A stretch of 48,803 nucleotides of DNA from a virus (IMGVR_UViG_3300010370_000025); one strand, 5' to 3'; counted from the first letter of the stretch, positions 6,271 to 46,800 are shown. Numbers and translations are program-made. The notes: a model not told the origin generated them from the sequence alone.

Positions 6271-6907
6271 AAGAAAAATATTACTTACGTTAGCTAGATC
6301 TGGATCTTCGTGGGTTCAACAATATATAACTGAGCATAACAAAAAATATTTTCAAATGAACTATCTTCAAGATCAATTTGGAGGGGTTGAATTTTTTAAT
6401 AAAGAAAATATTAAGTTTGACAATCTTTCATTTATTTCATTAGAAGATAAAATAAATTTTCTAGAATCTGAAAGATTAGCAGGAAGAGAATACTCTATTA
6501 AAGTATTTTTAGATCAAATTGAAAATTACCATGATTGGTTTTTTAATTTTTATAAGGACTGGGAAATAATAAAACTAACTCGAAGAGAACTATTTAATCA
6601 GTTTATAAGCTATACATGCCATACACCAGAATTTCATGACTTATTTTTTAAAGAGCTTGTTACAGGACAAAAAGGTTTTATAAAAGATTTTCTAAAATGG
6701 CAAGATTTATTAAATCTTGTTCAAACTGATAGCCACCTAGTTTATGAGGATTTAACAGACGAATTTCTAAGTTCATATTTTAAAGTGAGCATAAATTACA
6801 ATTTCATATCACATAAGTCGAACATTGATTACACAAAAAAATTTTTATTACATGATCATGCAAAAAAAATTTTTGATGAAATATTAGTTGATTTTATTAT
6901 TCCTTAG
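6263..6907 (+). CDS. sulfotransferase-like protein (Stf0-type P-loop)
   Basis: N-terminal LLTLARSGSSW resembles the 5'-PSB loop. IIKLTRR...QFISY resembles the 3'-PB motif. Confidence 0.6.
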   Translation: MNKRKILLTLARSGSSWVQQYITEHNKKYFQMNYLQDQFGGVEFFNKENIKFDNLSFISLEDKINFLESERLAGREYSIKVFLDQIENYHDWFFNFYKDWEIIKLTRRELFNQFISYTCHTPEFHDLFFKELVTGQKGFIKDFLKWQDLLNLVQTDSHLVYEDLTDEFLSSYFKVSINYNFISHKSNIDYTKKFLLHDHAKKIFDEILVDFIIP

Positions 6908-6934
6908 TATACAATATACTTTTAAGGGCACACA

Positions 6935-8038: not shown

Positions 8039-8622
8039 TGCACGTAAAAGAGATTGATTTAGATATAGACTATGATATGCTTCTTGAAGCGTTTAATAAT
8101 TTTAGAGTAACATACAGTACAGAATACTCTATGAATAGTTTACTAGAAAAACATGCTAGACAAATTGCAGTTCAGTGCCGTCAAGAAGCAGATGGTATTA
8201 GACAGATTACAGAATCTTGTAATAGTTTAATATATGATTGGGATAATTTTGATTCTAAAATTCATAGTGAGCCTCCTAAGAGAGATGTAGTTTTAAGTGA
8301 AAAATTATTTGATGTAACTTGTGATATATTTAAGGGCAACTATATTGGGCATGTTGTAGAAAAAGTAAAACAACAATATGGGGCTTATAGAGGTAGGTTT
8401 ATGATGATGAAATATAAAACCTGTCTATCAATGCATGTAGATGAGACACCTAGACTTCATATACCTATTATAACTAACCCTGATAGCTTTATGGTTATTG
8501 ACGATCAAATATATCGCTTTCCTTTTGGTAAAGCTTATATTGCTAACACATTATTACCTCATACAGCAGTTAATGCAGGCAAGAAAGATAGAACTCACTT
8601 AGTATTCTGTGTAGATAAATGA
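8038..8622 (+). CDS. Asp/Asn beta-hydroxylase-like 2OG-Fe(II) oxygenase
   Basis: SMHVD, RLHIPIITNP, HTAVNAG, DRTHLVF. Confidence 0.75.
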   Translation: MHVKEIDLDIDYDMLLEAFNNFRVTYSTEYSMNSLLEKHARQIAVQCRQEADGIRQITESCNSLIYDWDNFDSKIHSEPPKRDVVLSEKLFDVTCDIFKGNYIGHVVEKVKQQYGAYRGRFMMMKYKTCLSMHVDETPRLHIPIITNPDSFMVIDDQIYRFPFGKAYIANTLLPHTAVNAGKKDRTHLVFCVDK

Positions 8623-9062
8623 TTGAAATTATTGATGAATTAAATATTATACCTTTTTGGCAGCAATTGTGGCCAGGAAGACAAATACCTCTTATGAGCT
8701 CTATGCTATTTCCTAAAGGGTATGATATATCAATCTATAAAAAATATAAACCTACTTATTTTGGGTATAGTATAGATGGTAACATTATAGGAGTCAATAG
8801 CGGCCATAAAACAAGCGATACTGATTATAGATCAAGAGGTCTTTTTGTATTACCTGAATTTAGAAACAGAGGTGTTGCAGTTAAACTTTTAGAAGCTACT
8901 ATTAACCAAGCAAAAGAAGAAGATTGCTCTATTGTATGGACAGTTCCTAGAGACACTTCTTTATATGCATACTATAAAGCAGGCTTTGATAGAGCAAGTG
9001 ATTTTTTCGAAACAGAAACTAGTGCAAAAAATTGTTATGCAATTTATAAAATAGATGGCTGA
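8619..9062 (+). CDS. GNAT N-acetyltransferase
   Basis: Motif A LFVLPEFRNRGVAVKLL and motif B YYKAGF. Confidence 0.8.
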   Translation: MIEIIDELNIIPFWQQLWPGRQIPLMSSMLFPKGYDISIYKKYKPTYFGYSIDGNIIGVNSGHKTSDTDYRSRGLFVLPEFRNRGVAVKLLEATINQAKEEDCSIVWTVPRDTSLYAYYKAGFDRASDFFETETSAKNCYAIYKIDG

Positions 9063-10587
9063 TGTAGTAATTTTTACGGAATGCAACGGTAGTATAGGTT
9101 GGGGCAGAGATGCAGGAGCTTATACTGTTGCATCTAGACTTAGAGAAGTTGGATATAATGTTAAGGTGATTGATTTTTTCAGTCACTTTAATTTTAGTAT
9201 GTTTAAAGCCGCTATTGATAATTTTGTAACTAAAGATACTTTATTTTTAGGGTTTAGTTCAACTCATTTTAGCACTCTAAAGCCAGATGAGTGGGAACAA
9301 CATTGGCAGTCTGATAGTAGAACACGTAAAAATAATATGTGGAATGTTTATTTTCCATTTACTCCAGAAGAATTAAACGAATGGTTTAGTTATGCTAAAC
9401 AAAAATATAATAATCTTAAAATAATTGTCGGTGGACAGAAGGTAGCACAAAAACAATCACTACAGAAGAAGTATCCTTTTGTAGATATATGGGTAGGCGG
9501 AATGGCTGATAAAGCTGTAGTAAGTATTGCTAACTCATTAAAAAATAAAGAGATTTTACCTAATAGAATTAAATCAGAACTAGATTATGGAAATATAGAA
9601 GAGAATGTTTTTAACACTAGCAAAATACATTGGGCAGTCGACGACAATATTTTTGCAGGAGAAGCCCTGCCGCTTGAAATTTCAAGAGGATGCCCGTTCG
9701 AATGCGCGTTCTGTGATTACACTAAAAAGAAAACTAATACTTGGACTGTTAAAGCTGACAACTTAAGACAGCAGTTACTTTATAACTACTATATGTTTGA
9801 TGTTACTCATTATATGCTTACCGATTTTCAAATTAATGAAAATATGGATAAGTTAAAGATGATTCATAAAGTGTTTACAAATTTACCTTTTAAGATTACG
9901 TGGTCTGGATTTGGAAGATTAGACCTTATTAAAGCAAAACCTGAGATGGTAGATCTCATTTATGAAAGTGGATGTAGATCTATACAATGGGGTATTGAAA
10001 CTGTTAATGATAGTGTGGGTCCTCTTATTGGTAAAGTAACTAAAAGAGATATTATTGAAAAATCATTAGACTTATGTAAGTCTAAATGGAAAGATGATGT
10101 AGTAATGGGTAGCGGATTCATACTTGGATTACCAGGCGAATCATTACAGTCATGTAAAGAACTTGTTAATTGGACAGAAACACAGCCATGGCTTAATGCA
10201 TGGGAGATAACTCCTTTATATATTGGTACTTACAATAAGGAAAAAGAATATACTATTGACTATAGTAAGATTCAAAAGAATCCAGAGAAGTATGGATATA
10301 AGATTTCTATGGAACTAAATAATAATGGAGTGTATATTGAAGATTGGTCTAACAATGATATGACTAAATCTGCTTTAATTGAGATGATAGAAGAAACACA
10401 AAAAAGTGATGCTTGGCAAAGGCGTATTATGACTTCATATCTCGGGTATAGCCGTTGTAGTAATTTAGGATTCAATCATAGAGAGTTATTGTCTGCTAAT
10501 AAAAATAACAAGACATGGATTAAACAACATGCAGACAACTATAAAAGTTTAGCCAACATTTATTTACAAAAGAATGGTTTAGTATGA
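9055..10587 (+). CDS. B12-binding-domain radical SAM protein
   Basis: N-terminal Rossmann-like GAYTVASRLREVGYNVKVIDF and IIVGG. EISRGCPFECAFC, GIET, FILGLPGES. Confidence 0.85.
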   Translation: MADVVIFTECNGSIGWGRDAGAYTVASRLREVGYNVKVIDFFSHFNFSMFKAAIDNFVTKDTLFLGFSSTHFSTLKPDEWEQHWQSDSRTRKNNMWNVYFPFTPEELNEWFSYAKQKYNNLKIIVGGQKVAQKQSLQKKYPFVDIWVGGMADKAVVSIANSLKNKEILPNRIKSELDYGNIEENVFNTSKIHWAVDDNIFAGEALPLEISRGCPFECAFCDYTKKKTNTWTVKADNLRQQLLYNYYMFDVTHYMLTDFQINENMDKLKMIHKVFTNLPFKITWSGFGRLDLIKAKPEMVDLIYESGCRSIQWGIETVNDSVGPLIGKVTKRDIIEKSLDLCKSKWKDDVVMGSGFILGLPGESLQSCKELVNWTETQPWLNAWEITPLYIGTYNKEKEYTIDYSKIQKNPEKYGYKISMELNNNGVYIEDWSNNDMTKSALIEMIEETQKSDAWQRRIMTSYLGYSRCSNLGFNHRELLSANKNNKTWIKQHADNYKSLANIYLQKNGLV

Positions 10588-12362
10588 GCCGAATAATTAT
10601 TTTAAGTGATATCTATGATGTGCGTGGTACAGGAGGTACAAAATTTCGCTCTCACTTTCTAGAAGAGGAAGAGAGAGAAGATATGATTAACCATGCAAAA
10701 TTAGATAAACTGTTAGATGTAGTATATAACCCTAAATCAAACAGTAATTACGCTACAGGTAAATACGTAGGCTCAAGTAAATATAATTTTTGGACTCGTT
10801 ATATGGGCCCCTATACTATTGCATCAAATATTCGTGAAAAATGTCCTGATTGGGATGTAGTAGTATTAGATTATTTTACTAAATTAGATAATTTTTTTGA
10901 AGTATTTGAGCAGCTAGTTACACCAGATACTAAGTATGTTGCTCTAAGTATCACATTCTTAAATAATCCATTTAATCCTAAACAAAAAGATTTTAATTTA
11001 TGGCATTTTAGCCATCAAGAATGTTTAGATTGGTTTGCTAAAATAAAAAATATAGCTCCTAACGCAGAGATTATTATTGGTGGAGCATTAGTAGATACTT
11101 TTTATAAACAACATATCACTCAAAAGAAAAAATTTGATCTTCCAGAAGCTATGCGTAGGTATGTAAGCTACGCGTTTCATGGTTATGGTGAAAAAACTAT
11201 TGTTAATTTTTTAAATAATACTTTAGATGAAAAACAAGTATTTGAAAAACAAGGTGTAAAGTTTATTAATGAGCCTGCCTTAGCAGGTAAAGGCGCTTTA
11301 ATTAATAGTACTAGATGGACAAGAAACGATGCTATTCAGCCAGGTGAATGGCTTCCGCTAGAAATTTCTAAAGGTTGTCGTTTTGGTTGTAAGTTTTGTT
11401 TCTATGATCATAGCGGCACAGTTATTAAAGATCCAAAAATTCTTAGAGAAGAACTTATCTATAATTATGAAAATTTTGGTACTACAGGCTACCAGCTAAC
11501 TGATGACACTGTGAATGATAGTCCTGCAAAAATTAATATGATGCATGATGTTATTAAGAGTCTACCATTTAATATAGAATGGATAGCTTATACTCGCCCT
11601 GATATGTTTTACAAGTATCCGTGGATGCTAGAAAAAATGCTTGACATGGGCTGTAGAGGTATGTTCTTGGGTGTGGAGACATTTAATCATACAGCAGCTA
11701 AAATTGCCGGTAAAGGATTACACCCAGATAAAATTAAAGATATTATTAGATGGTTAAGAGAAACATGTAAAGATGATGTTTTTATTTTAGCTAGCTTCAT
11801 TATTGGGCTTGTAGGTGAAACAGAAGAATCATTAATGGATACTGCACGTTGGCTTAAAGAACAAAAATATCTCGACAAAGCACAATATGAAATACTTTTT
11901 GTAAGTGATGAAGGGGGTCGCACATCTAATGAGTTTTCAGAAAACTCTAGCAAGTTTGGAATTAGAGAAGTAAGATGGAACCCTGATTATTATTGGAGAC
12001 ATGATACATTAGATCTACCTCAATGTAAGGAGATTGCATTGAAGTGGGAAGATATGATGTCAGAACATTCAATAACTCAGTTTGAAAGACATAGCGACTA
12101 TAATGTTAGTTTTTGGGCTTATCCAAGATTAAGAAGTTTTGGACTGTCACATAAAAATGCTAAAAATGTTCTTAAGTCGCAGGTTGTTCCGGGCGAGGTT
12201 TATAGAAGAAATATCGAGTGGGTCGCTAAATACCATTCAGATATAGTTAACAATAACGGGCTGTCTATATGTCCGCAGAGTAATAAAGAGTGGGCATTTC
12301 CGCCTGATAAGAGTATGCGAAACTCATGGTCTAAAATTAAGTTTGATCAAATAAATGTCTAA
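10584..12362 (+). CDS. B12-binding-domain radical SAM protein
   Basis: GPYTIAS, IIIGG, EISKGCRFGCKFC, GVET, FIIGLVGET. Confidence 0.85.
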   Translation: MSRIIILSDIYDVRGTGGTKFRSHFLEEEEREDMINHAKLDKLLDVVYNPKSNSNYATGKYVGSSKYNFWTRYMGPYTIASNIREKCPDWDVVVLDYFTKLDNFFEVFEQLVTPDTKYVALSITFLNNPFNPKQKDFNLWHFSHQECLDWFAKIKNIAPNAEIIIGGALVDTFYKQHITQKKKFDLPEAMRRYVSYAFHGYGEKTIVNFLNNTLDEKQVFEKQGVKFINEPALAGKGALINSTRWTRNDAIQPGEWLPLEISKGCRFGCKFCFYDHSGTVIKDPKILREELIYNYENFGTTGYQLTDDTVNDSPAKINMMHDVIKSLPFNIEWIAYTRPDMFYKYPWMLEKMLDMGCRGMFLGVETFNHTAAKIAGKGLHPDKIKDIIRWLRETCKDDVFILASFIIGLVGETEESLMDTARWLKEQKYLDKAQYEILFVSDEGGRTSNEFSENSSKFGIREVRWNPDYYWRHDTLDLPQCKEIALKWEDMMSEHSITQFERHSDYNVSFWAYPRLRSFGLSHKNAKNVLKSQVVPGEVYRRNIEWVAKYHSDIVNNNGLSICPQSNKEWAFPPDKSMRNSWSKIKFDQINV

Positions 12363-13422
12363 GCAAATACTAAGCTATACCAATCATTATAAATTTAATA
12401 CCCCTGTAGAATTTAAAAAAGGGTATGGTGATATAATAGTAGATAGTGAAGGTAAATCTTATTTCGATGCAACTAGTGGATTATGGAATGTAAATTATGG
12501 TTATTGCAACAAAGAAATTCAAGATGCAGTCGTCGAACAAATGGAGAAGTTACACTTCTACCCTAACCATTTTTGGTCCTATGCTGACGTTACCGAAAAA
12601 GCAGCTGATGAAATAACCAAGCTGTTTGGCTATAGTAAAGTTTATTTTGGTAATAGCGGTTCAGATGCTATAGATACAGCTAGTTATATTGCAAGGTTTT
12701 GTTTTAATGGTAGAAAAACTAATTTAGTTACTTTAACTAATAGCTATCACGGTGCTACAAAGCTTAATTTCGTTAATAATAAATTAAATCTTGGTGATAT
12801 AGATCATAATACAGCTCTTTTAGTTATAGAGCCTCTTAAAGTTAATTCAGGTGTGCATGAAACTAGCTGGGAGACTATTAATTATGCATTTGAATTAAAA
12901 CGTAAGTATGGATTTTTAATTGCTTATGATGAGACAGTTACTGCATTAGGACGAGGAGGTGATCTTGCTTATGCTTTAAGAAACTTTAAACCAGATATTC
13001 TTATTGCTAGCAAAGGTCTTACTAATGGTATGTTTCCGTTATCAGCTACAATGGTTAGTGAAGAAGTAGCAGATCAAATCTATAAAACTAATGAGGTGTT
13101 TAATTATGGCTATACAACTTCAGGACATCCGCTGGCATGCGCTGCACTTTTAAAGGTTTTAGAGTTATATAAAAAATACCCTGTTAGCAAGACTGCTAAA
13201 GGGTTTGACAAATACTTAAAAGTTAATACTAGACAATACGGACTAGCTATTGGTATTGATGTTAAGGATGGTCCAGAAGCTCGTAAAGAAGCAAAAAAGC
13301 TTAACTATCTAGTACGTAACTATATTAATACAATTATTGTATGCCCTATGTTTACTAGTACAGCTTCTAACTATGCTTCTCTTTTTGAATATTTAAATAG
13401 TGTCTCAGTATCTCACTACTAA
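12355..13422 (+). CDS. class III PLP-dependent aminotransferase
   Basis: YFDATSGLWNVNYG, DETVTALGR, PLP lysine in SKGL, GYTTSGHPLACAA. Confidence 0.85.
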   Translation: MSKQILSYTNHYKFNTPVEFKKGYGDIIVDSEGKSYFDATSGLWNVNYGYCNKEIQDAVVEQMEKLHFYPNHFWSYADVTEKAADEITKLFGYSKVYFGNSGSDAIDTASYIARFCFNGRKTNLVTLTNSYHGATKLNFVNNKLNLGDIDHNTALLVIEPLKVNSGVHETSWETINYAFELKRKYGFLIAYDETVTALGRGGDLAYALRNFKPDILIASKGLTNGMFPLSATMVSEEVADQIYKTNEVFNYGYTTSGHPLACAALLKVLELYKKYPVSKTAKGFDKYLKVNTRQYGLAIGIDVKDGPEARKEAKKLNYLVRNYINTIIVCPMFTSTASNYASLFEYLNSVSVSHY

Positions 13423-13915
13423 CTTTAAAATTATATTTACTTGGAAGATCATATATAAGCCAATCTAAACCAGTAACAACTTCTCTACAATTAGGTGAAC
13501 CGCACCCACATTTATTTAATATCACATAATTATGATTAATGAAAGATGAGTAGTCTACTGTTAGATGCTCATCTTTTTTTATGTCCTTTATTGCTCTAAT
13601 TGTATTATCTTCTAAATAACAATTAGGCTCACAACTATGATTATGTGAACCGTTTAAATCAGGAGATAGCCCCCCTTGAAAAAAATATAGCTTGTCTATT
13701 AAATGGAAATAATCTTCTTTAAACTCTTGACGTTCATCATGAGATAACCAAATTCCTCCTATACGATAAACAGCTTCATCTTGATGTATATCCTCTAAAG
13801 CAAATCTTCCATGACCTATATTTTTATCAACTATTCTTAGTTCAGTTTTTGTACTAGCAATACCTAATGATATTTTATTATTGTTAATAAACTTTATTAA
13901 ATCAATTTTGTTCAT
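13367..13915 (-). CDS. SET-domain lysine methyltransferase with post-SET
   Basis: GHGRFA, NHSCEPNC, EHLTVDY, post-SET CGCGSPNCR. Confidence 0.85.
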   Translation of the reverse strand: MNKIDLIKFINNNKISLGIASTKTELRIVDKNIGHGRFALEDIHQDEAVYRIGGIWLSHDERQEFKEDYFHLIDKLYFFQGGLSPDLNGSHNHSCEPNCYLEDNTIRAIKDIKKDEHLTVDYSSFINHNYVILNKCGCGSPNCREVVTGLDWLIYDLPSKYNFKVSSEILRHYLNIQKEKHS

Positions 13916-14807
13916 AATTTAATTCTCTAAGAAGAGGAACATCAAACTTTTTAATATAATCTGTAAATTCTGTCATCTTTACTCTATTAGAATATGAAGC
14001 AATTTTATCTCTATATTCTTTATCAAGATCGGAATATAATTCAAATCCTGTTAATTTAGGTCTAGGCTCTAAATCAAACTCTTCCATAGCTAATTGACAT
14101 TTAACTTTATTAATATTAAGATATCTTTGTTTTTTAGCAGTCTCTACCCATCTATAAACCGACTCACGCTGTAAAAACGAAAGCATTAACTCTGGTGTAT
14201 ATTGAAAAAATGAAGGAATAATTTCTTTTTCTTTATTTTGAAAATATAATGCAAGTCTAGTTTCTTTTTCTTGTTCTATATCATATACTTGCAAACTATA
14301 TTTTGTTTCACCTTCATATTTTCTAGAAAGAAAATTCTCCCCCATTCCTAACACAGGTATACTATTAATTTTTTCTATACAATAAGCAAGAAGATTAAGT
14401 TGAGGGCTATTACATTTAGTCCTATATGCCATCTCTACAACTGAATTTTTAAAAAACATCTCTACGTTTATATCAAATATATCAGGAGATATTCCATACT
14501 TTGCGCATAGCCTTAATGCATAGTTAATATCGTGCATGTTAAGATTGCGCTCATATCTTATTATAGTAACTCTAGGAGTAATGCCAGCAGCTATAAAACT
14601 AAGCAACATTATTTCAGAATCAATTCCTCCACTTAAAAGCAGATCTAATTTGTTTCCGTGCTTATCGTAAAGCTCTTTAGCTACATTTATACATTCTTGT
14701 CTAAATGTTTTATGTGATTTAACCTTACCAAATTCAACCTTAAACTCATCTTCGTGATAAATTTTAAGATGATTATTTTTTGTATATTCAAAAATGTTTT
14801 TTTGCAT
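13902..14807 (-). CDS. PP-loop (asparagine-synthase-like) ATP pyrophosphatase
   Basis: LLLSGGIDSE PP-loop. Confidence 0.6.
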   Translation of the reverse strand: MQKNIFEYTKNNHLKIYHEDEFKVEFGKVKSHKTFRQECINVAKELYDKHGNKLDLLLSGGIDSEIMLLSFIAAGITPRVTIIRYERNLNMHDINYALRLCAKYGISPDIFDINVEMFFKNSVVEMAYRTKCNSPQLNLLAYCIEKINSIPVLGMGENFLSRKYEGETKYSLQVYDIEQEKETRLALYFQNKEKEIIPSFFQYTPELMLSFLQRESVYRWVETAKKQRYLNINKVKCQLAMEEFDLEPRPKLTGFELYSDLDKEYRDKIASYSNRVKMTEFTDYIKKFDVPLLRELNYEQN

Positions 14808-16188
14808 ATTCTAAAGCCAGTCCATTTGCTTGTTGACGAGCAGATGTATAATTAACATCGCTTAGGTTCATTTTCATAACTTCACTCATTGGTTTTTGAT
14901 ATGTAGCACTTAGTTCACCTAATAACCAGCCTCCTACACAACAATGAGGATCACACCATTCATTAGCTTGTAAAGCAGCTATCCTTATATGTTCGTGCCA
15001 CAGATTTTTATATTCCCAATTAATCATATTATTAGGTCTAAATTTAATATTATATGTATTATAGTTTCTATCAAACTCGCTCTGATATAGTTTCCCTGAA
15101 ACAGGATTAACATAAAGAGCCCACCATTTCCATCTATACATTTTATTATCTATGAGCCACTGCATATCTTTTTCAAGCTCACTATACGTCCATCCAGGTA
15201 TACCTAATATTAAACCTAAATGCCAATTAATTTTATTATCCCATCTCTCTCTGAGTTTAGGGAGAAAATCTTTTGCATGTGTACCTGACCAACTTTTACC
15301 TACTAGTTTAGCACTGTATGGATTAAATGTTTCTATACCAAAAAACGCGGATCTTAATCCACTTTCTTCTAACATATCTATAGTATGTGGTTTAGCCCAT
15401 AAAAGATCAGCTCTTAAAAATCCTAACCACTCAAGCTCAAACGGAACAGAGTTACGAAGTTTTACTAAATCTTTAAGTTTTTCCTCATCATCATTAATAG
15501 TATCATCTGTATAATAATATTTTGTAACACCCCATCGCTCATAGTTATACATAACTTCATCACGAAGATTTTCAAACGTTCTTGTATATGTACCTTTTTT
15601 CTTACCTATGTAAGGATAACTACAAAATTTACATTTAAATACACAACCTCTTCCAAGCTCTAATGTAAGAACTTCATGAGGATTAATATAATCGTTTTCT
15701 GTATACGTGCGTACAAAATTTTTAATATCGAACGAAGGTCTAACTATCTTAGCTCCAGACTTCTCATCAAAATATTTTAAAATATTATTTTCTGCATAAT
15801 CTGGCATTCTTAGCCATTTTAGATTACTATAAACTGAATTAGCATTTGCTCCTCCTAAAATCCATTCTATATTAGGATACTTGCTTTCTACCTTCTTTCT
15901 TGCTATACTCACCCATTCAGGAACTGGAATCACTACTTTCTTTACACCGTCTTGTATTTCTGTATCTAAATTCCAGAAAGTAGCACTACACCCAATTGCA
16001 TAAGTATCTCTAGTAATATACCTTTCGGTTAATTCCGCTATAATATCTGGTGATAAGTTATAACCGAAATCAATGACCTGTACAGTATATCCGTACTGTC
16101 GTAACCAGCTAGCAACCTGGTATGGTCCACCTGTTCTTAGTATAGAATGCACAATATCTGTGCCAGACCATATGATAAAATTAGCCAT
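14788..16188 (-). CDS. B12-binding-domain radical SAM protein
   Basis: GPYQVASWLRQYGYTVQVIDF, WILGG, ELGRGCVFKCKFC, GIET. Confidence 0.85.
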   Translation of the reverse strand: MANFIIWSGTDIVHSILRTGGPYQVASWLRQYGYTVQVIDFGYNLSPDIIAELTERYITRDTYAIGCSATFWNLDTEIQDGVKKVVIPVPEWVSIARKKVESKYPNIEWILGGANANSVYSNLKWLRMPDYAENNILKYFDEKSGAKIVRPSFDIKNFVRTYTENDYINPHEVLTLELGRGCVFKCKFCSYPYIGKKKGTYTRTFENLRDEVMYNYERWGVTKYYYTDDTINDDEEKLKDLVKLRNSVPFELEWLGFLRADLLWAKPHTIDMLEESGLRSAFFGIETFNPYSAKLVGKSWSGTHAKDFLPKLRERWDNKINWHLGLILGIPGWTYSELEKDMQWLIDNKMYRWKWWALYVNPVSGKLYQSEFDRNYNTYNIKFRPNNMINWEYKNLWHEHIRIAALQANEWCDPHCCVGGWLLGELSATYQKPMSEVMKMNLSDVNYTSARQQANGLALEYAKKHF

Positions 16189-19293: not shown

Positions 19294-19370
19294 GCCCCCA
19301 TAAACCAACAGGTAGAGTTAGGAGACTTAAAATCTCTGTAGTGTCAGTTCGAATCTGACTGGGGGCACCA
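19294..19370 (+). tRNA. tRNA-Leu(TAA), short variable loop
   Basis: Acceptor GCCCCCA/TGGGGGC, anticodon arm GGAGA-CTTAAAA-TCTCT, TTCGAAT T-loop, encoded CCA. Confidence 0.85.
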
Positions 19371-19392
19371 TTTACTATGATAGGAGTTACAA

Positions 19393-19485
19393 ATGCCTCA
19401 TCCGCACAAGAATCGCCCTAGCAAGGGTCGTCGTAAGATTGGATCTAAAAGGCGTAAGGCAAGGGCTAAGAATCGTAAAAATTAA
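19393..19485 (+). CDS. 30-aa highly basic micro-protein
   Basis: SD AGGAG, then MPHPHKNRPSKGRRKIGSKRRKARAKNRKN. Fills the gap between two tRNAs. Confidence 0.6.
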   Translation: MPHPHKNRPSKGRRKIGSKRRKARAKNRKN

Positions 19486-19491
19486 AGTTAC

Positions 19492-19567
19492 GGGCCTGTA
19501 GCTCAATGGTTAGAGCCAGCCGCTCATAACGGCTTGGTTGCAGGTTCGAGTCCTGCCGGGCCCACCA
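19492..19567 (+). tRNA. tRNA-Ile2(CAT)
   Basis: GGGCCTG/CGGGCCC acceptor, AGCCG-CTCATAA-CGGCT, CCA. Body resembles ileX-type tRNAs and has no initiator features. Confidence 0.8.
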
Positions 19568-20859: not shown

Positions 20860-21177
20860 TTACTTGCTCATATAAGCATTTGCACCAAAGAAGGTAGCTA
20901 CTACACCTGCTTGTGCAATATAGAACATGCTTAGAAGATTATCTAAAGCAGCTAATCTTTCTACAGACACGAATGATGTGAAAGCTACAGCAGTAAATAC
21001 TACCATGCTTCCCATAGCAACCCATGCCATCATTCTTAGCTGATCTTCTTTCTTATCTTTATTCTCTATATCAATTAGAGCTTGAGCCTTTGTCAATTCA
21101 TCATCAGAAACTATTCCATCACCATCACTATCAAACTGGTTATATCTAGAACCCTTTTCTAATGTTTTTGGTGACAT
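20860..21177 (-). CDS. EF-hand-containing 2-TM holin-like protein
   Basis: Canonical EF loop DSDGDGIVSDDE followed by two TM helices. Confidence 0.6.
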   Translation of the reverse strand: MSPKTLEKGSRYNQFDSDGDGIVSDDELTKAQALIDIENKDKKEDQLRMMAWVAMGSMVVFTAVAFTSFVSVERLAALDNLLSMFYIAQAGVVATFFGANAYMSK

Positions 21178-21467
21178 TATTGAGCATCCTTACCAGTTGT
21201 ATCGCTATTACCATAAAAGAATCCTATGATAGTAGCAACTGCAGTACCTAGCAAGAATCCTAAAATAATATTAGCAAAATCGCGTCCACCTTCAGGAAGA
21301 GGTAGGAATGTTACGCAAAAGAAGTAGATTGTTGAACTGATAGCCCAGAACCAGCTGTACCAGTACACAAAGTTGATTGCAAAAGTATTACCAGCTTTAA
21401 CCTGATCAGCATGAAGAGCTCTAGCTTCTGCTACATCTTTTGCGGCATTTTCGTCAAGTTTAACCAT
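21177..21467 (-). CDS. holin-like 2-TM membrane protein
   Basis: Two TM helices, NIILGFLLGTAVATIIGFFYGNS. Confidence 0.55.
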   Translation of the reverse strand: MVKLDENAAKDVAEARALHADQVKAGNTFAINFVYWYSWFWAISSTIYFFCVTFLPLPEGGRDFANIILGFLLGTAVATIIGFFYGNSDTTGKDAQ

Positions 21468-21557
21468 ATTGTTTCCTTTCTTACATATTCACCTCATCAT
21501 TTTGTAAATTTCCAGTAGTTATTATGATAAATAATAATGTAATCACTGGAGATATTT

Positions 21558-22004
21558 ATGTTTAGACTGTTTTTGTTAGCTGGAATTGTGTGTTTAACAT
21601 CATTCCAAGCTCACGCTTCAGAATTAGTGCATGAGTTTAGCAGCCCTTCCTTTTCAGGTCAGGGGTGGTCTCAACATGTTCTTACAATTGAGAACATAGA
21701 AAATACCCGCAGATTAAAGCTAGCGGAAGATAAAAAAGCAGCAGCAGCTCAAGCGGCAGCTGATGCTAAGAATACTAACTTAGCTAAGTTTTTAAACAAC
21801 TTAGAATCAAGAATTTATGCTACTCTTTCTCAAAAAATTGCTGAAGAGCTTTTTAAGGAAGGAGGAGCATCTAGTGGTGAATTTGACGTAGCTGGTAATC
21901 ATATTGAGTGGTCGTCTTTAGGAAACGAAATAACATTAAGAATTACAGATCCAGGTGGTGTAGTGACTGAGATAGTAGTTCCTGTAGGAAGTTTAGCATG
22001 GTAA
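21558..22004 (+). CDS. csgF: curli assembly component CsgF
   Basis: Signal peptide, then ELVHEFSSPSFSG (CsgF N-terminal FxNPxFxG-like) and FLNNLESRIY..LS. Adjacent to csgG. Confidence 0.8.
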   Translation: MFRLFLLAGIVCLTSFQAHASELVHEFSSPSFSGQGWSQHVLTIENIENTRRLKLAEDKKAAAAQAAADAKNTNLAKFLNNLESRIYATLSQKIAEELFKEGGASSGEFDVAGNHIEWSSLGNEITLRITDPGGVVTEIVVPVGSLAW

Positions 22005-22849
22005 AATATATTACAATAGCTCTACTAGGATTAGTTTTAGCAGGGTGTACAGCAACTAATAAAGAATTTGGAAAGCCGGTCTCAGAACCAGCAGAAAAAA
22101 TGCTTCCAGTTGCTACTAAAAAAAGATATAATGAATTAATCTATTTAAAAGAACCAGCAGGGCCACCTGTTCCTATAGCTGTATATAAATTTTCCGATCT
22201 TACAGGTCAGAGAAAATCAGCAGAATATGCTAGTTTAAGTACAGCGGTTACTCAAGGATCAGAAGTATTTTTAATTAAAGCTTTACAAGATGCTGGTGGT
22301 GGCAAATGGTTTAAAGTAGTTGAAAGAGTTGGTATCGATAACTTAGTTAAAGAGAGACAACTAATAAGAAGCCAGCGAGAGACCTACGAAGGAGAAGATG
22401 CGCAAAAGCTTCCTCCTTTAGTAGTAGCTGGTGTAATGATTGAGGGCGGTATAGTCGGTTATGATAGTAATATCACAACTGGGGGTATAGGTGCTAGAGT
22501 TTTAGGTATTGGCGCCGACAAGATGTATAGAAGAGATGAGGTCACAGTTATATTAAGACTGATTTCTATTAGTACAGGCGAAGTATTACTTTCATCAGGT
22601 GTAACTAAATCAGTAGTTAGCACATCCGCAGATGGAAACATGTTAAAGTTTGTTGATCAAGGCACTGTGTCAGTAGAATTTGAAGCAGGTTATAGCATCA
22701 ATGAACCTACTACATATGCAGTTCGTATTGCAATTGAACAAGCAGTTGCAGAGATGGTTAAAGATGGTGTAAAGAGAGATCTATGGCAGTATAAAGAAAA
22801 ATCAACTGTGAGCCCCTCAACTCTTCCTAATGTAAAAAAGGTAAATTAA
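21998..22849 (+). CDS. csgG: curli secretion pore lipoprotein CsgG
   Basis: Lipobox LAGC, AVYKFSDLTGQRK, STAVTQG, FKVVER, IEGGIVGYDSN, YRRDEVTVILRLIS. Confidence 0.9.
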   Translation: MVKYITIALLGLVLAGCTATNKEFGKPVSEPAEKMLPVATKKRYNELIYLKEPAGPPVPIAVYKFSDLTGQRKSAEYASLSTAVTQGSEVFLIKALQDAGGGKWFKVVERVGIDNLVKERQLIRSQRETYEGEDAQKLPPLVVAGVMIEGGIVGYDSNITTGGIGARVLGIGADKMYRRDEVTVILRLISISTGEVLLSSGVTKSVVSTSADGNMLKFVDQGTVSVEFEAGYSINEPTTYAVRIAIEQAVAEMVKDGVKRDLWQYKEKSTVSPSTLPNVKKVN

Positions 22850-22859
22850 CGAGGGAAAA

Positions 22860-23534
22860 ATGAAACTCCTAGCAAGACTGGCAACCTTTTTGTCATTCTT
22901 GATTATGGTAAACGTTGCTAATGCAGCAGGAAATAGTATCTATATAGACCAAATTGGCGACACTTCAACTATTTCTATTACTCAGACAGGTAACAGCAAC
23001 GAAATTGGAAGTGCAAATAGTAGAGCCATCATAGATGGTAATAGTAATTTAATAACAATAGATCAAATTGGTAACTCAAATATTCTTGATATGAATATTG
23101 AAGGTGATGGTAATGAAGTAACTCAAACAATTACTGGAGACAGTAACGACTTGAGCTTACTCTGCGCTACTTGTTCCATGGTAGTCATAACTGATACCAT
23201 TACAGGAAGCGGTAACGAGTTATCAAGAATAATTGACTCTGCTAGTGGAACATCAACTGTTGATATCCAGTCAGATAACAATACAGTAAGTATTAACAAT
23301 GATTCTTCAGCTATTTCTGGAGCATCAAGTGACATTTCTATTTCCGGTGGTAATGGAAATAACATTACGTTAAATCAAACTGGGGCAGCAGGACCTAATG
23401 GTCATAACGTTATTCTTAATGTAGTAGGTGCTACAAATACTGCTGTTATTGAACAGGGGGGAAATGTAGACAGCTATGTTAATGCGACTATTACTGGTTC
23501 TGATAACAATATTAATATCAACAGTAACTACTAA
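22860..23534 (+). CDS. curlin-like repeat protein (CsgA/CsgB-like)
   Basis: Signal peptide plus repeated x-I-x-Q/I-x-G-x-x-N beta-arc units (IDQIGDTS, ITQTGNSN, IDQIGNSN, IEGDGN, ITGDSN, IEQGGN, ITGSDN). Confidence 0.75.
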   Translation: MKLLARLATFLSFLIMVNVANAAGNSIYIDQIGDTSTISITQTGNSNEIGSANSRAIIDGNSNLITIDQIGNSNILDMNIEGDGNEVTQTITGDSNDLSLLCATCSMVVITDTITGSGNELSRIIDSASGTSTVDIQSDNNTVSINNDSSAISGASSDISISGGNGNNITLNQTGAAGPNGHNVILNVVGATNTAVIEQGGNVDSYVNATITGSDNNININSNY

Positions 23535-24570
23535 CGCTTCATCTGTAGGAACAATAACAGAACAATCTGGTCCTACAGAGATTAAAAGAAATAAAGAAGT
23601 AGTTCCTTCAGCTATTAATTCAGCAGTAGAGATGGATGACACCATCACTACTGCTAATGCTGTTGCTGGAATTACATTTGAAGATCAGACACAAGTGCAT
23701 ATAACTGAGCAATCTAAACTAGTTATTGATACGTTTGTTTATGATCCTAATAAAAATACTGGTAAATTAGCTATTAAGATCGCTTTAGGTACTGTAAAGT
23801 ATACTTCCGGACAAATAGCTAAACATAACCCGCAACAAGTAGCAGTTGAAACACCTACTGCTACTATTGGTGTAAGAGGAACTGATTTTTCTTCTACTGT
23901 TGACGAATTAGGAAGATCAACTATCGTTCTTCTTCCTTCTTGTCCTGCAGGTTGGAAAAATTTAGACAAAGACTGTACTGTAGGGAGTATTGTAGTATCT
24001 ACAGATGCTGGAGAAATTTGGCTTACTAAACCATTTGAGTCCACTTCGGTAGAATCGAGAGAAGCTAATCCTAGCAAATCTGCAATTCTTGATTTGAGTT
24101 TAAATCAAATTAACAATATGTTAATTGTATCACCTCCTAAAGGTTTGAAAAAAGTAGAAGTTACTAAGGAAGATTCAAAGACTGCTTTAGATACAGATCT
24201 TCTGTCAATAGATTTTTTAGAGTATAAAGAATTAGAAACTGACTATTTAGTAACCGATAGATTAAGTATTAATTTTCTTGACGTTAATGTATTTGAAGAT
24301 GCATTATCTATTCAAACCAGTCAATTTCTTCAAAGTGAATTAGTAGAATATAATTCACTTTTACCTAAATATGATAAGAATACTGGTCTAAATTATATTG
24401 TTGAAAATGATAGCGTAATGTTGTACAGACAAAATGTAAATCATTATGCAGAAATAAATGTTTCTACTACTTCAAGTTTAACATATGAATTGACTCAAGA
24501 TAATATTAATATAAAACAAATAATAAACAGCCCTGGTACAACTACAATATACATTAACCAATCATTATAG
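23476..24570 (+). CDS. periplasmic FecR-domain protein
   Basis: Signal peptide. D.I.T....GITFED.TQV.I...SKL and VETPTATIGVRGTDF are typical of FecR. Confidence 0.8.
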   Translation: MLMRLLLVLITILISTVTTNASSVGTITEQSGPTEIKRNKEVVPSAINSAVEMDDTITTANAVAGITFEDQTQVHITEQSKLVIDTFVYDPNKNTGKLAIKIALGTVKYTSGQIAKHNPQQVAVETPTATIGVRGTDFSSTVDELGRSTIVLLPSCPAGWKNLDKDCTVGSIVVSTDAGEIWLTKPFESTSVESREANPSKSAILDLSLNQINNMLIVSPPKGLKKVEVTKEDSKTALDTDLLSIDFLEYKELETDYLVTDRLSINFLDVNVFEDALSIQTSQFLQSELVEYNSLLPKYDKNTGLNYIVENDSVMLYRQNVNHYAEINVSTTSSLTYELTQDNINIKQIINSPGTTTIYINQSL

Positions 24571-24577
24571 GTCTAAA

Positions 24578-24916
24578 ATGTTCAAGTATATTATAGCATT
24601 ATTGCTTTTATCAACACCTTGCTATGCTGGAAGTGCAATTTTAGATGTATCCGGATATAATAATGTTATGTCTTTTACGCAGTTAGGAAACAGTAACTTA
24701 AATTTTACTGCTAACAATTCTACTAATAACAATAATACATATACAGTAGTACAATCCGGAGGTAATCACTATCTAGATTTTGATTTAAATGGTGAATTTA
24801 AAGACTATGAAATTTCTATATTTCAAGTAAGTCCTCTTGATCAATTCCTATCTGTATCACAAACCTGCACCCTTTCATCTTGCTCTCCTGAGCCTTTCTC
24901 GGTTTATCAGTATTAA
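24578..24916 (+). CDS. short curlin-like secreted protein
   Basis: Signal peptide, SGYNNVMSFTQLGNSN, TYTVVQSGGNH. Confidence 0.55.
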   Translation: MFKYIIALLLLSTPCYAGSAILDVSGYNNVMSFTQLGNSNLNFTANNSTNNNNTYTVVQSGGNHYLDFDLNGEFKDYEISIFQVSPLDQFLSVSQTCTLSSCSPEPFSVYQY

Positions 24917-24918
24917 TC

Positions 24919-26949
24919 ATGAAAAATTTTATAATAGCAGTCGCACTTTTATTATCTCTAATAACTGTTAAAGTTTGGAATCCATACCCTCTACAAGTAT
25001 TAGAGCTAAAGTTTATAGATTTTATTTTAAACACAAAAGAAAAACAAGAAGTAACTGAAATTGTTGTAGTTGAAATTTCAGATAAAACTTTAGATAAACT
25101 AGGTCAATGGCCTCTTCCTAGACAAGAACTAGCTAGATTTGTAGAGCTGTTAAGATACTGGCAAGCAGGCGCTATAGTATTCCCAGTTTTATTTTCTGAA
25201 CCAGATAGATCAGGAGGCGATAAAGAGTTTGCTGATAAATTAGCTTCAGGGGGTACAGTAATAGCTCAAGTCCCTTCTAATAAAGCAGATAAACCAGACG
25301 CAGTTAGAAGAGGCTTTTCAGCTGTAGGACAAGACCCTCTTCCTTGGGCATATATGTGGCCTGGTGCTGTTAGTCCACTACCTATATTAGCTAATAAAGC
25401 TTCTGGTGTAGGTGTCATAGCTTCTACACCAGAAGTTGATGGTGTTGTTCGTAGAATGCCTATGGTTGTTAATATAGATGGTAAATTATATCCTTCTTTA
25501 CCTTTAGAAATTATAAGAGTATTAACTAATGACCCGTCGTTCCAAATTAAAACTGGAGAGTCTGGTATTGAAGCTGTACGTATCCCACAGTTTAATACAA
25601 TTACTACTGATGCTAACGGTCGCGTCTGGATTGACTCTTCTACTGTTTTTAAACATATAGATTTTTTAGATGTTAAACAAGAAGATGTGCAAGACAAACT
25701 AGTTATTGTAGGTGTATCTGCTTCAGGGGTTGCGTCAGTGTTAGCTACTCCTAATGGTGAAAAATTCTCTCATGAAGTTCAAGCACAAACACTTTATACT
25801 ATATTCTCAGGATCTTCACCTATTCGTTATTCATTTGCTAATATGATAGAAATAGCTTCTCTATTAGTAATTGGTTTAATAATAATTCTAACTGTTCCTA
25901 AGCTTCCAGTTAAATTAACAGTACCTGTGTTTGTTGCTTTAGTAGGCGGAATAAGTTATGCACCATTTTATATTTTTGATATAAGAAACGAGCTATGGGA
26001 TAGTTCATTTATAGTAATATCATCAACTCTTATATATGGACTAATAATATCAAATAGCCTTGTTAGAGAATACCTACAGAAGCTTCAAATTAAGAAACAA
26101 TTTGGTACATATCTATCTCCTGACATGGTAGAGAAGCTACAGAAGAACCCTGATTTGCTTAAGCTTGGAGGGGAGTCAAGAGAGCTTTCTATTATGTTTA
26201 CTGACGTTAGAGGGTTTACAGCAATATCAGAACACTACGGTAAAGATGTACAAGGTCTTACTAAGATAATGAATAGATATATGACTGCAATGACTCAATC
26301 TATTCTAGAAGAAAAAGGAACGCTGGACAAATATATTGGTGATGCCCAGATGGCTTTTTGGAATGCACCTCTTGATGATCCGGATCATGCTAAACATGCA
26401 GTTACCGCTGCAGTTAAAATGCTGGATAAGTTAGATGAATTTAATAAAGAGGTTGCTCAAGAAGGTGTTCCGCCCTTTGGTATGGGTCTCGGAATTAATA
26501 CAGGAACCGTCGTTGTTGGTAATATGGGTTCTTCTCAGCGTTTTGATTATACATGTTTGGGCGATAGTGTTAACCTCGCATCCAGACTGGAAGGACAATC
26601 TAAAAACTATGGTGTACAGATCATACTTGGACCTGATACAGCTGAACAAGTAAGAAAACATTATAGAGTTATTGAGTTAGATTGTATTGCAGTTAAAGGT
26701 AAAAAAGAAGGCGTTAAAATCTTTACAATTATTAACTCTGTTGATTGGGCTAATAGTCACCTAGTAATACATAAAAGATTTTTAGAAAATTATTATAAAG
26801 GTAACTGGGCTGCTGCTCGTAAAGATATAGCCGATTTAAAACTTTGTTTCAATAAAAAACTCGAGCACTATTATGACATGATGCTCGAGCGAATTGAATC
26901 TAATCCTCCAAAAGATTTTGATGGAGTTTATAGAGCTACATCAAAGTAA
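24919..26949 (+). CDS. CHASE2-domain class III adenylate cyclase
   Basis: N-terminal TM, CHASE2 (GQWPLPR, DGVVRRMP), 3 TM, IMFTDVRGFT, DKYIGDA (Lys), FDYT (Asp), NLASRLEG. Lys/Asp pair indicates ATP specificity. Confidence 0.9.
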   Translation: MKNFIIAVALLLSLITVKVWNPYPLQVLELKFIDFILNTKEKQEVTEIVVVEISDKTLDKLGQWPLPRQELARFVELLRYWQAGAIVFPVLFSEPDRSGGDKEFADKLASGGTVIAQVPSNKADKPDAVRRGFSAVGQDPLPWAYMWPGAVSPLPILANKASGVGVIASTPEVDGVVRRMPMVVNIDGKLYPSLPLEIIRVLTNDPSFQIKTGESGIEAVRIPQFNTITTDANGRVWIDSSTVFKHIDFLDVKQEDVQDKLVIVGVSASGVASVLATPNGEKFSHEVQAQTLYTIFSGSSPIRYSFANMIEIASLLVIGLIIILTVPKLPVKLTVPVFVALVGGISYAPFYIFDIRNELWDSSFIVISSTLIYGLIISNSLVREYLQKLQIKKQFGTYLSPDMVEKLQKNPDLLKLGGESRELSIMFTDVRGFTAISEHYGKDVQGLTKIMNRYMTAMTQSILEEKGTLDKYIGDAQMAFWNAPLDDPDHAKHAVTAAVKMLDKLDEFNKEVAQEGVPPFGMGLGINTGTVVVGNMGSSQRFDYTCLGDSVNLASRLEGQSKNYGVQIILGPDTAEQVRKHYRVIELDCIAVKGKKEGVKIFTIINSVDWANSHLVIHKRFLENYYKGNWAAARKDIADLKLCFNKKLEHYYDMMLERIESNPPKDFDGVYRATSK

Positions 26950-27243
26950 TTATTCAGCCTGTTTTATTTTAAGGTCTTTTAATTCTTTTGTATCTATTTT
27001 ATCAGAAATAACACCAGTATGTAATTCTGTTGGTGCATTATTTTCTTCTCCTGAATTATTATCAGATGAATCAGCAGGAGTGTCAGAATCAGCAGGTGTA
27101 TCAGCAGGATTATCAGATGAATCAGCAGGTGTATCAGCAGGATTATCTGAGTCTTCAAAAGCAGGGGGCTCTTTTAGTTCTTGACATGCGAACGCTAGTG
27201 ATGGAAACATTAAAGTAATAGCCATTAAAATAATTCTAATCAT
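26950..27243 (-). CDS. secreted acidic Asp/Ser/Pro repeat peptide
   Basis: Signal peptide ending AFA, then DSSDNPADTPA-type repeats. Confidence 0.6.
   Translation of the reverse strand: MIRIILMAITLMFPSLAFACQELKEPPAFEDSDNPADTPADSSDNPADTPADSDTPADSSDNNSGEENNAPTELHTGVISDKIDTKELKDLKIKQAE
27086..27147. repeat. 33-bp tandem repeat (about 2 copies plus partial units)
   Basis: GAATCAGCAGGTGTATCAGCAGGATTATCAGAT at 27086-27118, repeated from 27119. Confidence 0.9.
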
Positions 27244-33205: not shown

Positions 33206-33472
33206 ATGGTAGATAAAAAAGTAATACCTATCGATGTTGATATGGATTTTGACTTTGGTTTTGGCTTTACAGATGATTTAACTGAAGCAGTTTCAGAAAA
33301 AGAAAACCAAGCAATAGTCGCACAAAATAAAGCTGTCACGATGTATAAGATGATTATGCCTCTGCTTAATAATTTAAAAAAAAATCCTGATAAACCGAAT
33401 ATAGTATGGCCTGATAGAGAAAATAAAATAAATGACTTTATCAAAAAACTAGATTCAGTTTTAAATCAATGA
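33206..33472 (+). CDS. hypothetical phage protein
   Basis: DFDFGF, LLNNLKKNPDKPNIVWPDR. Confidence 0.65.
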   Translation: MVDKKVIPIDVDMDFDFGFGFTDDLTEAVSEKENQAIVAQNKAVTMYKMIMPLLNNLKKNPDKPNIVWPDRENKINDFIKKLDSVLNQ

Positions 33473-34230
33473 TAGAAAAAAGAACAAAACATTATAAATC
33501 AATTTTTGTTTCAGATATTCATCTAGGATCTAGAATGAGTCAGGCTGAGGCGTTTTTAGATTTTATTAAATATGTTGAATGTGAAAAGCTTTATTTAGTA
33601 GGTGATATTATAGATGGATGGGCACTTCATAGATCATTTTATTGGCCTCAACAACATAATGATGTAATCCAAAAATTGATGAGAAAGGCTCGTAAAGACA
33701 CTGAAGTAATTTATCTTCCAGGTAACCATGATGAGTTTCTTAGATCGTTTGGTGAGCATGAATTCGGTAATATTAAACTTCAGGATAAAGTTATTCATAA
33801 AGGTTTAGATGGTAAAACATACATTGTAATGCATGGTGATCAGTTTGATGCAGTTGTCAATAATATAAGATGGTTAGCTTATCTAGGTTCATGGGCTTAC
33901 GATTTTTCTATGATGTTAAATTTAATAGTAACTAAAATAAGAAACATTTTTAACTTACCATACTGGTCGTTAAGTGCTTGGGCCAAATATAAAGTTAAAG
34001 AAGCTGTAAATTTTATAACAGATTATGAAGATAATTTAGCTGGATATGCACAATCAAAACAAGTAGATGGTGTAATATGTGGGCATATTCACCATCCAAA
34101 TATACGTAAAATGAATAATGGCATTATGTATATGAATAGCGGTGATTGGGTAGAAAGTTGCTCAGCATTAGTAGAGAACGATGATGGTTCATGGGAGATT
34201 ATAAAATGGACTTTAAAAGAATCGTTATAA
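33469..34230 (+). CDS. plcP: PlcP-type phospholipase C (calcineurin-like metallophosphoesterase, often annotated LpxH-like)
   Basis: SDIHLG, GDIIDGW, YWPQQHNDVIQKLMRKAR, GNHDEF, HGDQFD, YWSLSAWAK, CGHIHH, NSGDWVESC. Matches PlcP-type proteins as recalled. Confidence 0.8.
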   Translation: MIEKRTKHYKSIFVSDIHLGSRMSQAEAFLDFIKYVECEKLYLVGDIIDGWALHRSFYWPQQHNDVIQKLMRKARKDTEVIYLPGNHDEFLRSFGEHEFGNIKLQDKVIHKGLDGKTYIVMHGDQFDAVVNNIRWLAYLGSWAYDFSMMLNLIVTKIRNIFNLPYWSLSAWAKYKVKEAVNFITDYEDNLAGYAQSKQVDGVICGHIHHPNIRKMNNGIMYMNSGDWVESCSALVENDDGSWEIIKWTLKESL

Positions 34231-45738: not shown

Positions 45739-45814
45739 GGACCCATAGCTCAATGGTTAGAGTACCGGTCTTTTAAACCGTAGGTTCTGGGTTCGAGTCC
45801 CAGTGGGTCCTCCA
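45739..45814 (+). tRNA. tRNA-Lys(TTT)
   Basis: GGACCCA/TGGGTCC, loop CTTTTAA, CCA. Confidence 0.9.
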
Positions 45815-45829
45815 TTTTATAGGTGTATC

Positions 45830-46524: not shown

Positions 46525-46589
46525 CTCAGTGGTAGAGTAGCGGTCTCTTAAACCGAATGTTGTGAGTTCGATTCTCACCTGGCACACCA
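46515..46589 (+). tRNA. tRNA-Lys(CTT)
   Basis: GCGCCAG/CTGGCAC (one C:A mismatch), loop CTCTTAA, CCA. Confidence 0.85.
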
Positions 46590-46787: not shown

Positions 46788-46800
46788 AAGAATCTCGACT

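Follow-up and report, generated by a model that had tools for sequence, protein, structure and literature searches.

A phage copy of the marine viral curli module with a predicted envelope-linked pair of a FecR-domain protein and a CHASE2 adenylate cyclase

Phages of marine bacteria are known to carry genes of the curli (type VIII) secretion system. The occurrence of csgF and csgG plus neighbouring genes was reported together with the proposal of a 'sibling capture' (Zaragoza-Solas 2020, PMC7029224), and a pore for the timing of lysis was proposed later (Buchholz 2022, PMC9004378). The full set of CsgF, CsgG, CsgA/B, FecR, a second CsgA/B and an adenylate cyclase has been on record for phages of SAR11 and OM43 since 2022 and was named in myo- and podo-type pelagiphages by Wittmers 2022 (PMC9599517); that study reported the module at all 65 GOV2.0 stations, recovered transcripts of it from ocean metatranscriptomes and considered roles in aggregation, in defence against superinfection and in uptake. 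Here, we describe a six-gene cassette of this type in a stretch of viral DNA of 48,803 nucleotides (nt) (IMGVR_UViG_3300010370_000025, hereafter the window). The cassette is not new, but a copy of the known viral curli module of marine T4-like and podo-type phages: csgF, csgG, a curlin gene and a FecR-domain gene, followed by the variable second curlin and the cyclase, were found in the conserved order in a phage genome. An initial annotation of the window had placed the curlin substrates and the cyclase beyond the known csgF/csgG pairs, a claim that does not hold, as Wittmers 2022 already lists all of these genes, FecR and the cyclase among them. What is new here is the observation that the cassette joins two modules that are separate in cells, where the cyclase/FecR pair is associated with type I secretion instead.

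Of the six open reading frames (ORFs; Table 1), the first two overlap by 7 nt and the third and fourth by 59 nt; gaps of 10, 7 and 2 nt separate the second from the third, the fourth from the fifth and the fifth from the sixth, respectively. All six proteins begin with a hydrophobic N-terminal export or anchor segment as read from the sequence; leaders and transmembrane (TM) helices were assigned by a hydropathy heuristic rather than by SignalP. Families were called by Pfam, PHROGs, NCBIfam and family-profile searches against solved structures, and PHROGs families exist for CsgF, CsgG, the FecR-like protein and the full-length cyclase. ORF calls and Pfam bore out the six same-strand genes with export signals at the positions given by the initial annotation, the curlin calls being firm at family level. 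The phage origin was borne out as well, since the window represents a T4-like replication module with a gp43-type DNA polymerase (phrog_262), UvsX, a gp41-type helicase, Hsp20 and a tRNA array. The nearest relative of the polymerase, that of cyanophage S-RIM8, was only 52% identical.

Both pore genes scored well above the thresholds of their Pfam families, CsgF with 54 bits against PF10614 (cut-off 25.8; 2.6e-14) and CsgG with 172 bits against PF03783 (cut-off 20.8; 1.4e-50). CsgG aligned with E. coli CsgG structures (3X2R) over residues 12–269 with 4.7e-48, and its N-terminus, MVKYITIALLGLVLAGC followed by T, contains an L-A-G-C lipobox as read from the sequence. CsgF matched phrog_35372 with 2.9e-43. 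As a single sequence it had no match in the PDB; the family profile (A7) matched residues 4–35 of E. coli CsgF (6L7A) with an E value of 5e-4, and the mature N-terminus (...EFSSPSFSGQGWS) lies within the N-terminal region common to E. coli CsgF. Rows for a fucose lectin in the same profile search were discounted, as they comprised three weak repeats with an E value of 9.9 each.

The two curlin-type proteins were borderline or silent as single sequences and became recognisable at the level of their families. The mature part of ORF3 is rich in Asn, Ser, Ile and Gly and contains Q-x-G-x-x-N units, yet it exceeded the Curlin_rpt cut-off only narrowly (21.2 bits vs 20.7; 2.9e-4); ORF5 had no Pfam match. 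Homologues of both were gathered from 80 IMG/VR loci anchored on CsgG. Curlin_rpt was matched by 53 of the 61 ORF3 homologues, and the ORF3 family profile matched the solved curli subunits 8C50 (2.8e-13) and E. coli CsgA 8ENQ (1.4e-3). The AlphaFold2 model of ORF3 was all-beta with a predicted local distance difference test (pLDDT) of 90.3. Its best structural match was again 8C50 (Z 19.6, 189 aligned residues, 24% identity, root-mean-square deviation 8.5 Å), about 4 Z above generic beta-helices; this match came from an independent aligner, while Foldseek against the PDB yielded nothing significant. ORF5 comprises the units FTQLGNSNLNF and VVQSGGNHYLDF and a conserved tail C-x4-C...YQY. Its relatives carry units such as QSGSGHSANL, near the classic Q-x-G-x-G-N-x-A, and its family profile (A5) matched 8C50 with 1.3e-8 and 8ENQ with 6.3e-3. 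Given these family-level matches, we assign both ORF3 and ORF5 to the curlin type, with tandem curlin repeats of the predicted beta-solenoid form; secretion and amyloid formation are predictions for both. The recognisable curlin-repeat substrates of the initial annotation were thereby confirmed, with ORF3 as the candidate major fibre subunit. The short form of ORF5 is rare, with only four protein clusters at a length of 112 aa. It aligned with the C-terminal ~80 residues of the long second curlins of Pelagibacter phage HTVC008M (gp018, residues 358–435) and Methylophilales phage Melnitz (gp103, residues 250–329), so that by alignment it is a cut-down form of that gene. Close relatives of the window on contigs of 154–216 kb also have a short fifth gene. 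The notion that the curlins are virion components was rejected, as both carry Sec-type leaders and T4-type virions would assemble in the cytoplasm.

The sixth gene encodes a CHASE2 adenylate cyclase. Its CHASE2 region matched PF05226 over residues 18–320 (139.7 bits, 1.6e-40), and the catalytic part matched Guanylate_cyc (77.7 bits, 1.1e-21) as well as cyclases in the PDB with values down to 3.3e-33; phrog_35576 was matched with 5.5e-224. Hydropathy indicated a TM helix at residues 1–23, followed by CHASE2 (~24–303), about three TM helices (304–382), the cyclase domain (~421–604) and a conserved C-terminal extension to residue 676. This layout would place CHASE2 in the periplasm, the predicted compartment of the other five products, and the cyclase domain in the cytoplasm. 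Alignment with CyaB (3R5G) and other solved cyclases revealed the full catalytic set, comprising the metal-binding residues D429 and D475, the purine-binding residues K471 and T545, and the transition-state residues N552 and R556. The enzyme is thus apparently a catalytically intact class III cyclase of the adenylate type. The initial annotation was right in this respect, but not in its Lys/Asp purine pair, which is Lys471/Thr545, the established class IIIb pattern. The full catalytic set was kept in 119 of 120 phage homologues and in all 80 cellular ones; Thr occupied the purine position in 119 of 120 phage homologues, while the cellular proteins had Ser (73) or Thr (7). The phage cyclases formed one clade in the tree. 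As this tree has no valid root, we claim no donor.

The FecR-domain protein matched Pfam FecR with 44.4 bits (2.4e-11) and phrog_37870 with 6.7e-89. Cyclase-neighbouring FecR proteins from cells matched profile positions of roughly 10–200 only. A search with the C-terminal half yielded 74 representatives among 1.84 billion, nearly all of them fragments or proteins of ~360 aa that matched at the same position, and an ESM Atlas search with this half returned viral clusters only, with TM scores of at most 0.37. Judged by these searches, hardly any protein outside this phage family has such a C-terminal half. A weak similarity to the repeats of a Cna_B adhesin (LPKY...G..Y.V.E..V..Y) recurs within residues ~260–330 (window 24250–24470), which hints at an immunoglobulin (Ig)-like stalk domain and is treated as a lead only. 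With regard to a FecR-type anti-sigma regulator, we found neither a cytoplasmic anti-sigma domain nor a TM helix nor adjacent fecI/fecA; the protein showed PF04773 only (residues 56–150) and a cleavable-looking leader, and its gene is flanked by a curlin gene and the cyclase. An iron-regulation role is not supported by this arrangement. The AlphaFold2 model of the protein, based on a 29-row alignment, had a mean pLDDT of 44 and was unusable. A complex prediction of the FecR-like protein (22–364) with CHASE2 (24–305), with alignments as input, gave a score of 0.00 and no verdict, and counts neither way.

Cellular relatives revealed a different arrangement. The set consisted of the 80 closest cyclase relatives, mostly from Alphaproteobacteria and 32–40% identical over residues 5–676. 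None of these 80 loci had csgG, csgF or a curlin gene within 10 kb. A FecR-domain ORF was present in 28, often directly upstream of the cyclase on the same strand, an ABC plus HlyD type I secretion pair in 24, and all three in 10; a GAF-HD protein occurred in seven and a cyclic nucleotide (cNMP)-binding protein in six. With only a handful of such genes per genome, no more than a few per cent of 18-kb windows would probably contain a FecR gene or a type I system by chance, although the observed counts are inflated by relatedness. Conversely, a CsgG close to that of the phages (1e-70 to 1e-85 with the phage CsgG profile) was found in seven of 401 sampled alphaproteobacterial genomes. There csgF adjoined csgG in all seven loci and curlin-repeat genes lay nearby in most, and neither FecR nor a cyclase was detected within ~9 kb of csgG in any of the seven. 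Furthermore, none of five cyclase-bearing genomes contained CsgG. Since the cyclase/FecR pair and the curli genes lie apart in the cells examined, the phage cassette joins two separate modules.

Giant FecR-domain ORFs of 1400–2100 aa were observed directly upstream of the CHASE2 cyclase in Bradyrhizobium (L003:5326-9876, and similarly L012, L014, L016, L019, L024 and L033); Pfam assigned FecR, cadherin-like/Ig and RTX domains to the 1517-aa protein of L003. In a marine alphaproteobacterial single-cell genome, an HlyD-type membrane-fusion protein fused to an N-terminal cNMP-binding domain (L044:8243-9958) is encoded between a C39-peptidase ABC exporter on its upstream side and the CHASE2 cyclase, which follows directly, an order of genes that suggests cyclic-nucleotide-gated type I secretion. 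We found no paper linking CHASE2 cyclases to type I secretion. A Campylobacterota cluster has been described that comprises genes for a CHASE2 cyclase, a phosphodiesterase, FecR and TPR proteins (PMC9239204).

Taken as a whole, we read the cassette as curli-type export plus an envelope-linked cyclic AMP (cAMP) pair, without assigning a direction to the signalling, and hold this reading to be probable. By homology, five of the six products would be exported through Sec during infection, the lipoprotein CsgG would build an outer-membrane channel and CsgF would cap it. The predicted beta-solenoid subunit ORF3 and ORF5 would pass through this channel and polymerise into a curli-like surface fibre, with the mini-curlin ORF5 as a possible nucleator or minor subunit. 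Attached to this system would be a second, ancestrally separate alphaproteobacterial pair, the exported FecR-domain protein and the four-helix membrane cyclase, whose CHASE2 sensor would lie in the periplasm while the catalytic domain, of class IIIb (Lys/Thr), would produce cAMP on the cytoplasmic side. The pair would tie cytoplasmic cAMP to envelope export or to the state of the cell surface, in either direction (envelope to cAMP, or cAMP to export). The proposed link of cAMP to curli export is drawn from conserved synteny only. A more far-reaching model, which we offer as speculation and would not expect to hold in full, regards FecR and the CHASE2 class IIIb cyclase as a portable secretion-coupled cAMP module. 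In Alphaproteobacteria it would be linked to type I systems, with cAMP gating or reporting the export of surface proteins; phages would have detached the pair, shrunk the FecR protein to FecR plus one phage-specific, possibly Ig-like (Cna_B-like) domain and attached it to curli, thus coupling fibre export to cAMP.

Several observations weigh against curli export with an envelope-linked cAMP pair, and they were considered together with three other explanations. In the alignment, the channel loop of the phage CsgG differs from that of E. coli: ...SAEYASLSTAV stands against ...KPYPASNFSTAV, with YPASNF opposite AEYASL and Asn-Phe opposite Ser-Leu, and the Tyr/Asn/Phe loop is presumably the channel constriction of E. 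coli CsgG. No match to CsgE, CsgC or CsgD was found among the six ORFs that fill 21558–26949. Their absence has been reported for the phage module and for Alphaproteobacteria alike (PMC9599517), and the secretion system that the initial annotation called complete is so in the alphaproteobacterial sense only. Moreover, no clumping was seen in Melnitz-infected OM43 cultures (Buchholz, PMC9004378). The altered loop, the missing CsgE gate and the lack of aggregation would all suit a pore without a fibre, with CsgG/CsgF as a solute-uptake channel or as a gated secretin/pinholin that times lysis (Zaragoza-Solas 2020; Buchholz 2022). Two small membrane-protein genes just upstream of csgF on the opposite strand point the same way; they belong to phrog_27150 and phrog_1544, to which PHROG assigns no function, and in a relative the gene at this diverging position (L083:6100-6618) is annotated as GTA_holin_3TM, an annotation of possible relevance to the lysis-timing proposal. 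Such a pore-only role nevertheless appears quite improbable, given that all but one of the 53 viral loci have a curlin-repeat gene after csgG, that ORF3 has a signal peptide and a confident beta-solenoid model with a solved curli subunit as its best match, and that the N-terminal region of CsgF is conserved. The statement of Buchholz that csgA/B are missing is contradicted by the record annotation and by Wittmers 2022.

The 53 viral loci are those CsgG-anchored loci in IMG/VR that extend at least 5.5 kb downstream of csgG. FecR was present in all 53, curlin in 52 and the cyclase in 47; the six loci lacking the cyclase kept FecR, 11 had no second curlin, and the fifth gene ranged from absent to 663 aa. 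Hence, not every part is essential. The six cyclase-free loci, the separation of the cyclase/FecR pair from the curli genes in cells and the single phage clade, consistent with one capture, would also agree with an independent cyclase, which would serve host takeover or counter-defence by raising cAMP with or without the curli genes and would owe its position to joint transfer and co-expression only. We consider this unlikely. The order of curlin, FecR, (second curlin) and cyclase is kept across phages whose cyclases are 38–40% identical, reportedly in two phage families, and the second curlin usually lies between FecR and the cyclase, which makes chance linkage hard to accept. Two features of the cyclases and their genomes count on the negative side as well. 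The Melnitz cyclase (L001:6980-9028) has Asp at the purine position and Ser in place of the transition-state Asn, a residue pair found in one of the 120 metagenomic homologues, and its activity may differ from that of the rest of the family. Furthermore, no cNMP-binding domain is encoded in the complete genomes of Melnitz and HTVC008M, so that the receiver of cAMP must be host-encoded or non-canonical. A further point on this side is that the cellular counts derive from related genomes and truncated contigs and are not independent events.

The initial annotation went further and proposed a relay in which the exported fibre or surface contact causes the periplasmic FecR-domain protein to bind CHASE2, switching the cyclase and changing host cAMP. 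Such a relay would fit the FecR-domain genes near 28 of the 80 closest cellular CHASE2 cyclases, often directly upstream on the same strand, as well as the shared predicted compartment of CHASE2 and the FecR-like protein; in addition, the FecR domain of E. coli contacts an outer-membrane partner, as cited in a passage of PMC5498481. We found no direct support for the relay. In Sinorhizobium meliloti, the only tested system, the FecR-domain gene smc02177 near cyaD1 is induced by cAMP-Clr and dispensable for signal perception (PMC5498481), and hence represents a cAMP output rather than an input. Moreover, in the viral loci FecR is linked more tightly to the curli genes (53/53) than to the cyclase (47/53), and the phage protein has neither the anti-sigma part nor the transmembrane part that mark true FecR regulators. 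The relay in this form is therefore doubtful. Because its direction is weakened by the S. meliloti genetics and neither Melnitz nor HTVC008M encodes a cNMP-binding domain, we commit ourselves to curli export and an envelope-linked cAMP pair only.

Upstream of csgF, an octamer resembling the T4-type late promoter was noted, which is only a lead; scans for sigma-70 promoters and terminators gave no more sites than shuffled sequence, and no tmRNA or riboswitch reached Rfam thresholds in the window. A small ORF that converges on the stop codon of the cyclase gene encodes a hydrophobic leader and acidic DNPADTPADS-type repeats without a Pfam family. Elsewhere in the window, a low-GC island contains several radical-SAM genes and an aminotransferase, and an LpxH/PlcP-like metallophosphoesterase gene adjoins the DNA polymerase gene. 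A 66% identical copy of the latter lies inside the curli cassette of two related contigs (L084, 8944–9672, and L085), between FecR and the mini-curlin. The occurrence at different sites in related contigs suggests that this envelope-lipid gene moves around within the lineage. The inserted copy was rejected as a cAMP phosphodiesterase in view of its LpxH/PlcP-like character (59.7 bits vs a cut-off of 134) and its similarity to the copy in the window.

Table 1. Positions of the curli-type cassette and of other features in the window
Feature	Position	Strand	Description
Whole cassette	21558-26949	+	Six tightly packed ORFs: CsgF, CsgG, curlin, FecR-domain, mini-curlin, CHASE2 cyclase
csgF	21558-22004	+	148 aa; Sec-type leader ends after AHA, before S; Pfam CsgF, phrog_35372
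csgG	21998-22849	+	283 aa; predicted outer-membrane lipoprotein pore subunit; lipobox LVLAGC
Curlin-repeat protein ORF3	22860-23534	+	224 aa; signal peptide ending after ANA, before A; Pfam Curlin_rpt
FecR-domain protein	23476-24570	+	364 aa; signal peptide; FecR ~56-150; phage-specific C-terminal half ~200-364; overlaps ORF3 end by 59 nt
Mini-curlin ORF5	24578-24916	+	112 aa; signal peptide; two to three curlin-like units
CHASE2 class III adenylate cyclase	24919-26949	+	676 aa; Pfam CHASE2 and Guanylate_cyc, phrog_35576
Candidate late promoter GATAAATA	21526-21533	+	7/8 matches to T4-type late promoter TATAAATA, read from sequence
Ribosome-binding site GGAG	21548-21551	+	6 nt 5' of csgF ATG, read from sequence
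Two small membrane-protein genes	20860-21467	-	Diverge from csgF
Small ORF	26950-27243	-	Converges on cyclase stop
Twelve tRNA genes, two groups	19294-19567 and 45739-48800	+	
Low-GC island	1454-16188		GC 0.28-0.32
Metallophosphoesterase gene	33469-34227		LpxH/PlcP-like

The module is very widespread in ocean viruses: beyond its reported presence at every GOV2.0 station, homologue searches returned more than 5600 sequences for the FecR-like protein and more than 7900 for the cyclase. Planktonic hosts without curli genes would acquire a surface fibre from it and possibly also a new input of the second-messenger type while infected. A functional module would have consequences for aggregation, superinfection exclusion and carbon export among the most abundant bacteria of the sea. 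The copy in the window itself adds little besides another lineage; the increment lies in the joined modules and in the type I connection. The association of the cyclase/FecR pair with type I secretion in cells makes bacteria such as Bradyrhizobium and Sinorhizobium tractable experimental models for what CHASE2 senses.

Compared with known systems, the closest are the modules of pelagiphages, which include pelagimyophage and HTVC023P-type podophage genomes as well as HTVC008M (gp014–019) and Melnitz (gp99–104). The latter two, both T4-like, are annotated with all six genes in the order seen in the window, and the parts fall into the same PHROG families. Their cyclases are only 38–40% identical to that of the window, the purine residue being Thr in the window, Asp in Melnitz and Ser in HTVC008M. 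The second curlin measures 112 aa in the window vs 338 and 441 aa in Melnitz and HTVC008M, respectively, and the cassette lies upstream of the Hsp20–gp43 replication block, whereas theirs are located next to tail genes. A histidine kinase as reported for podophages (HTVC023P-type) is absent from the cassette of the window. With E. coli csgBAC-csgDEFG the cassette shares CsgG, the N-terminal region of CsgF and the curlin repeats, but CsgE, CsgC, CsgD and the CsgG channel loop are not matched, and the NCBIfam equivalog scores stayed far below the cut-off (175 vs 505 bits). In alphaproteobacterial curli loci, csgF precedes csgG as in the phage, and no csgE, csgC or csgD was recognisable. On the side of the cyclase, S. 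meliloti clr-cyaD1-smc02177-smc02178 (PMC5498481) contains a CHASE2 cyclase homologue with a FecR-domain gene alongside, and the alphaproteobacterial FecR-Ig-RTX/ABC/HlyD/cyclase clusters (L003, L031, L044 and others) exhibit cyclase homology over the full length and the same catalytic residues as the phage enzyme. Their FecR proteins, mostly of 900–2100 aa with cadherin-like, Ig and RTX repeats, have only the FecR domain in common with the phage protein. Cells provide a cAMP receptor (Clr or a cNMP-binding HlyD), whereas Melnitz and HTVC008M encode none; and the secretion machine beside the cyclase is of type I in cells, but of type VIII in the phages.

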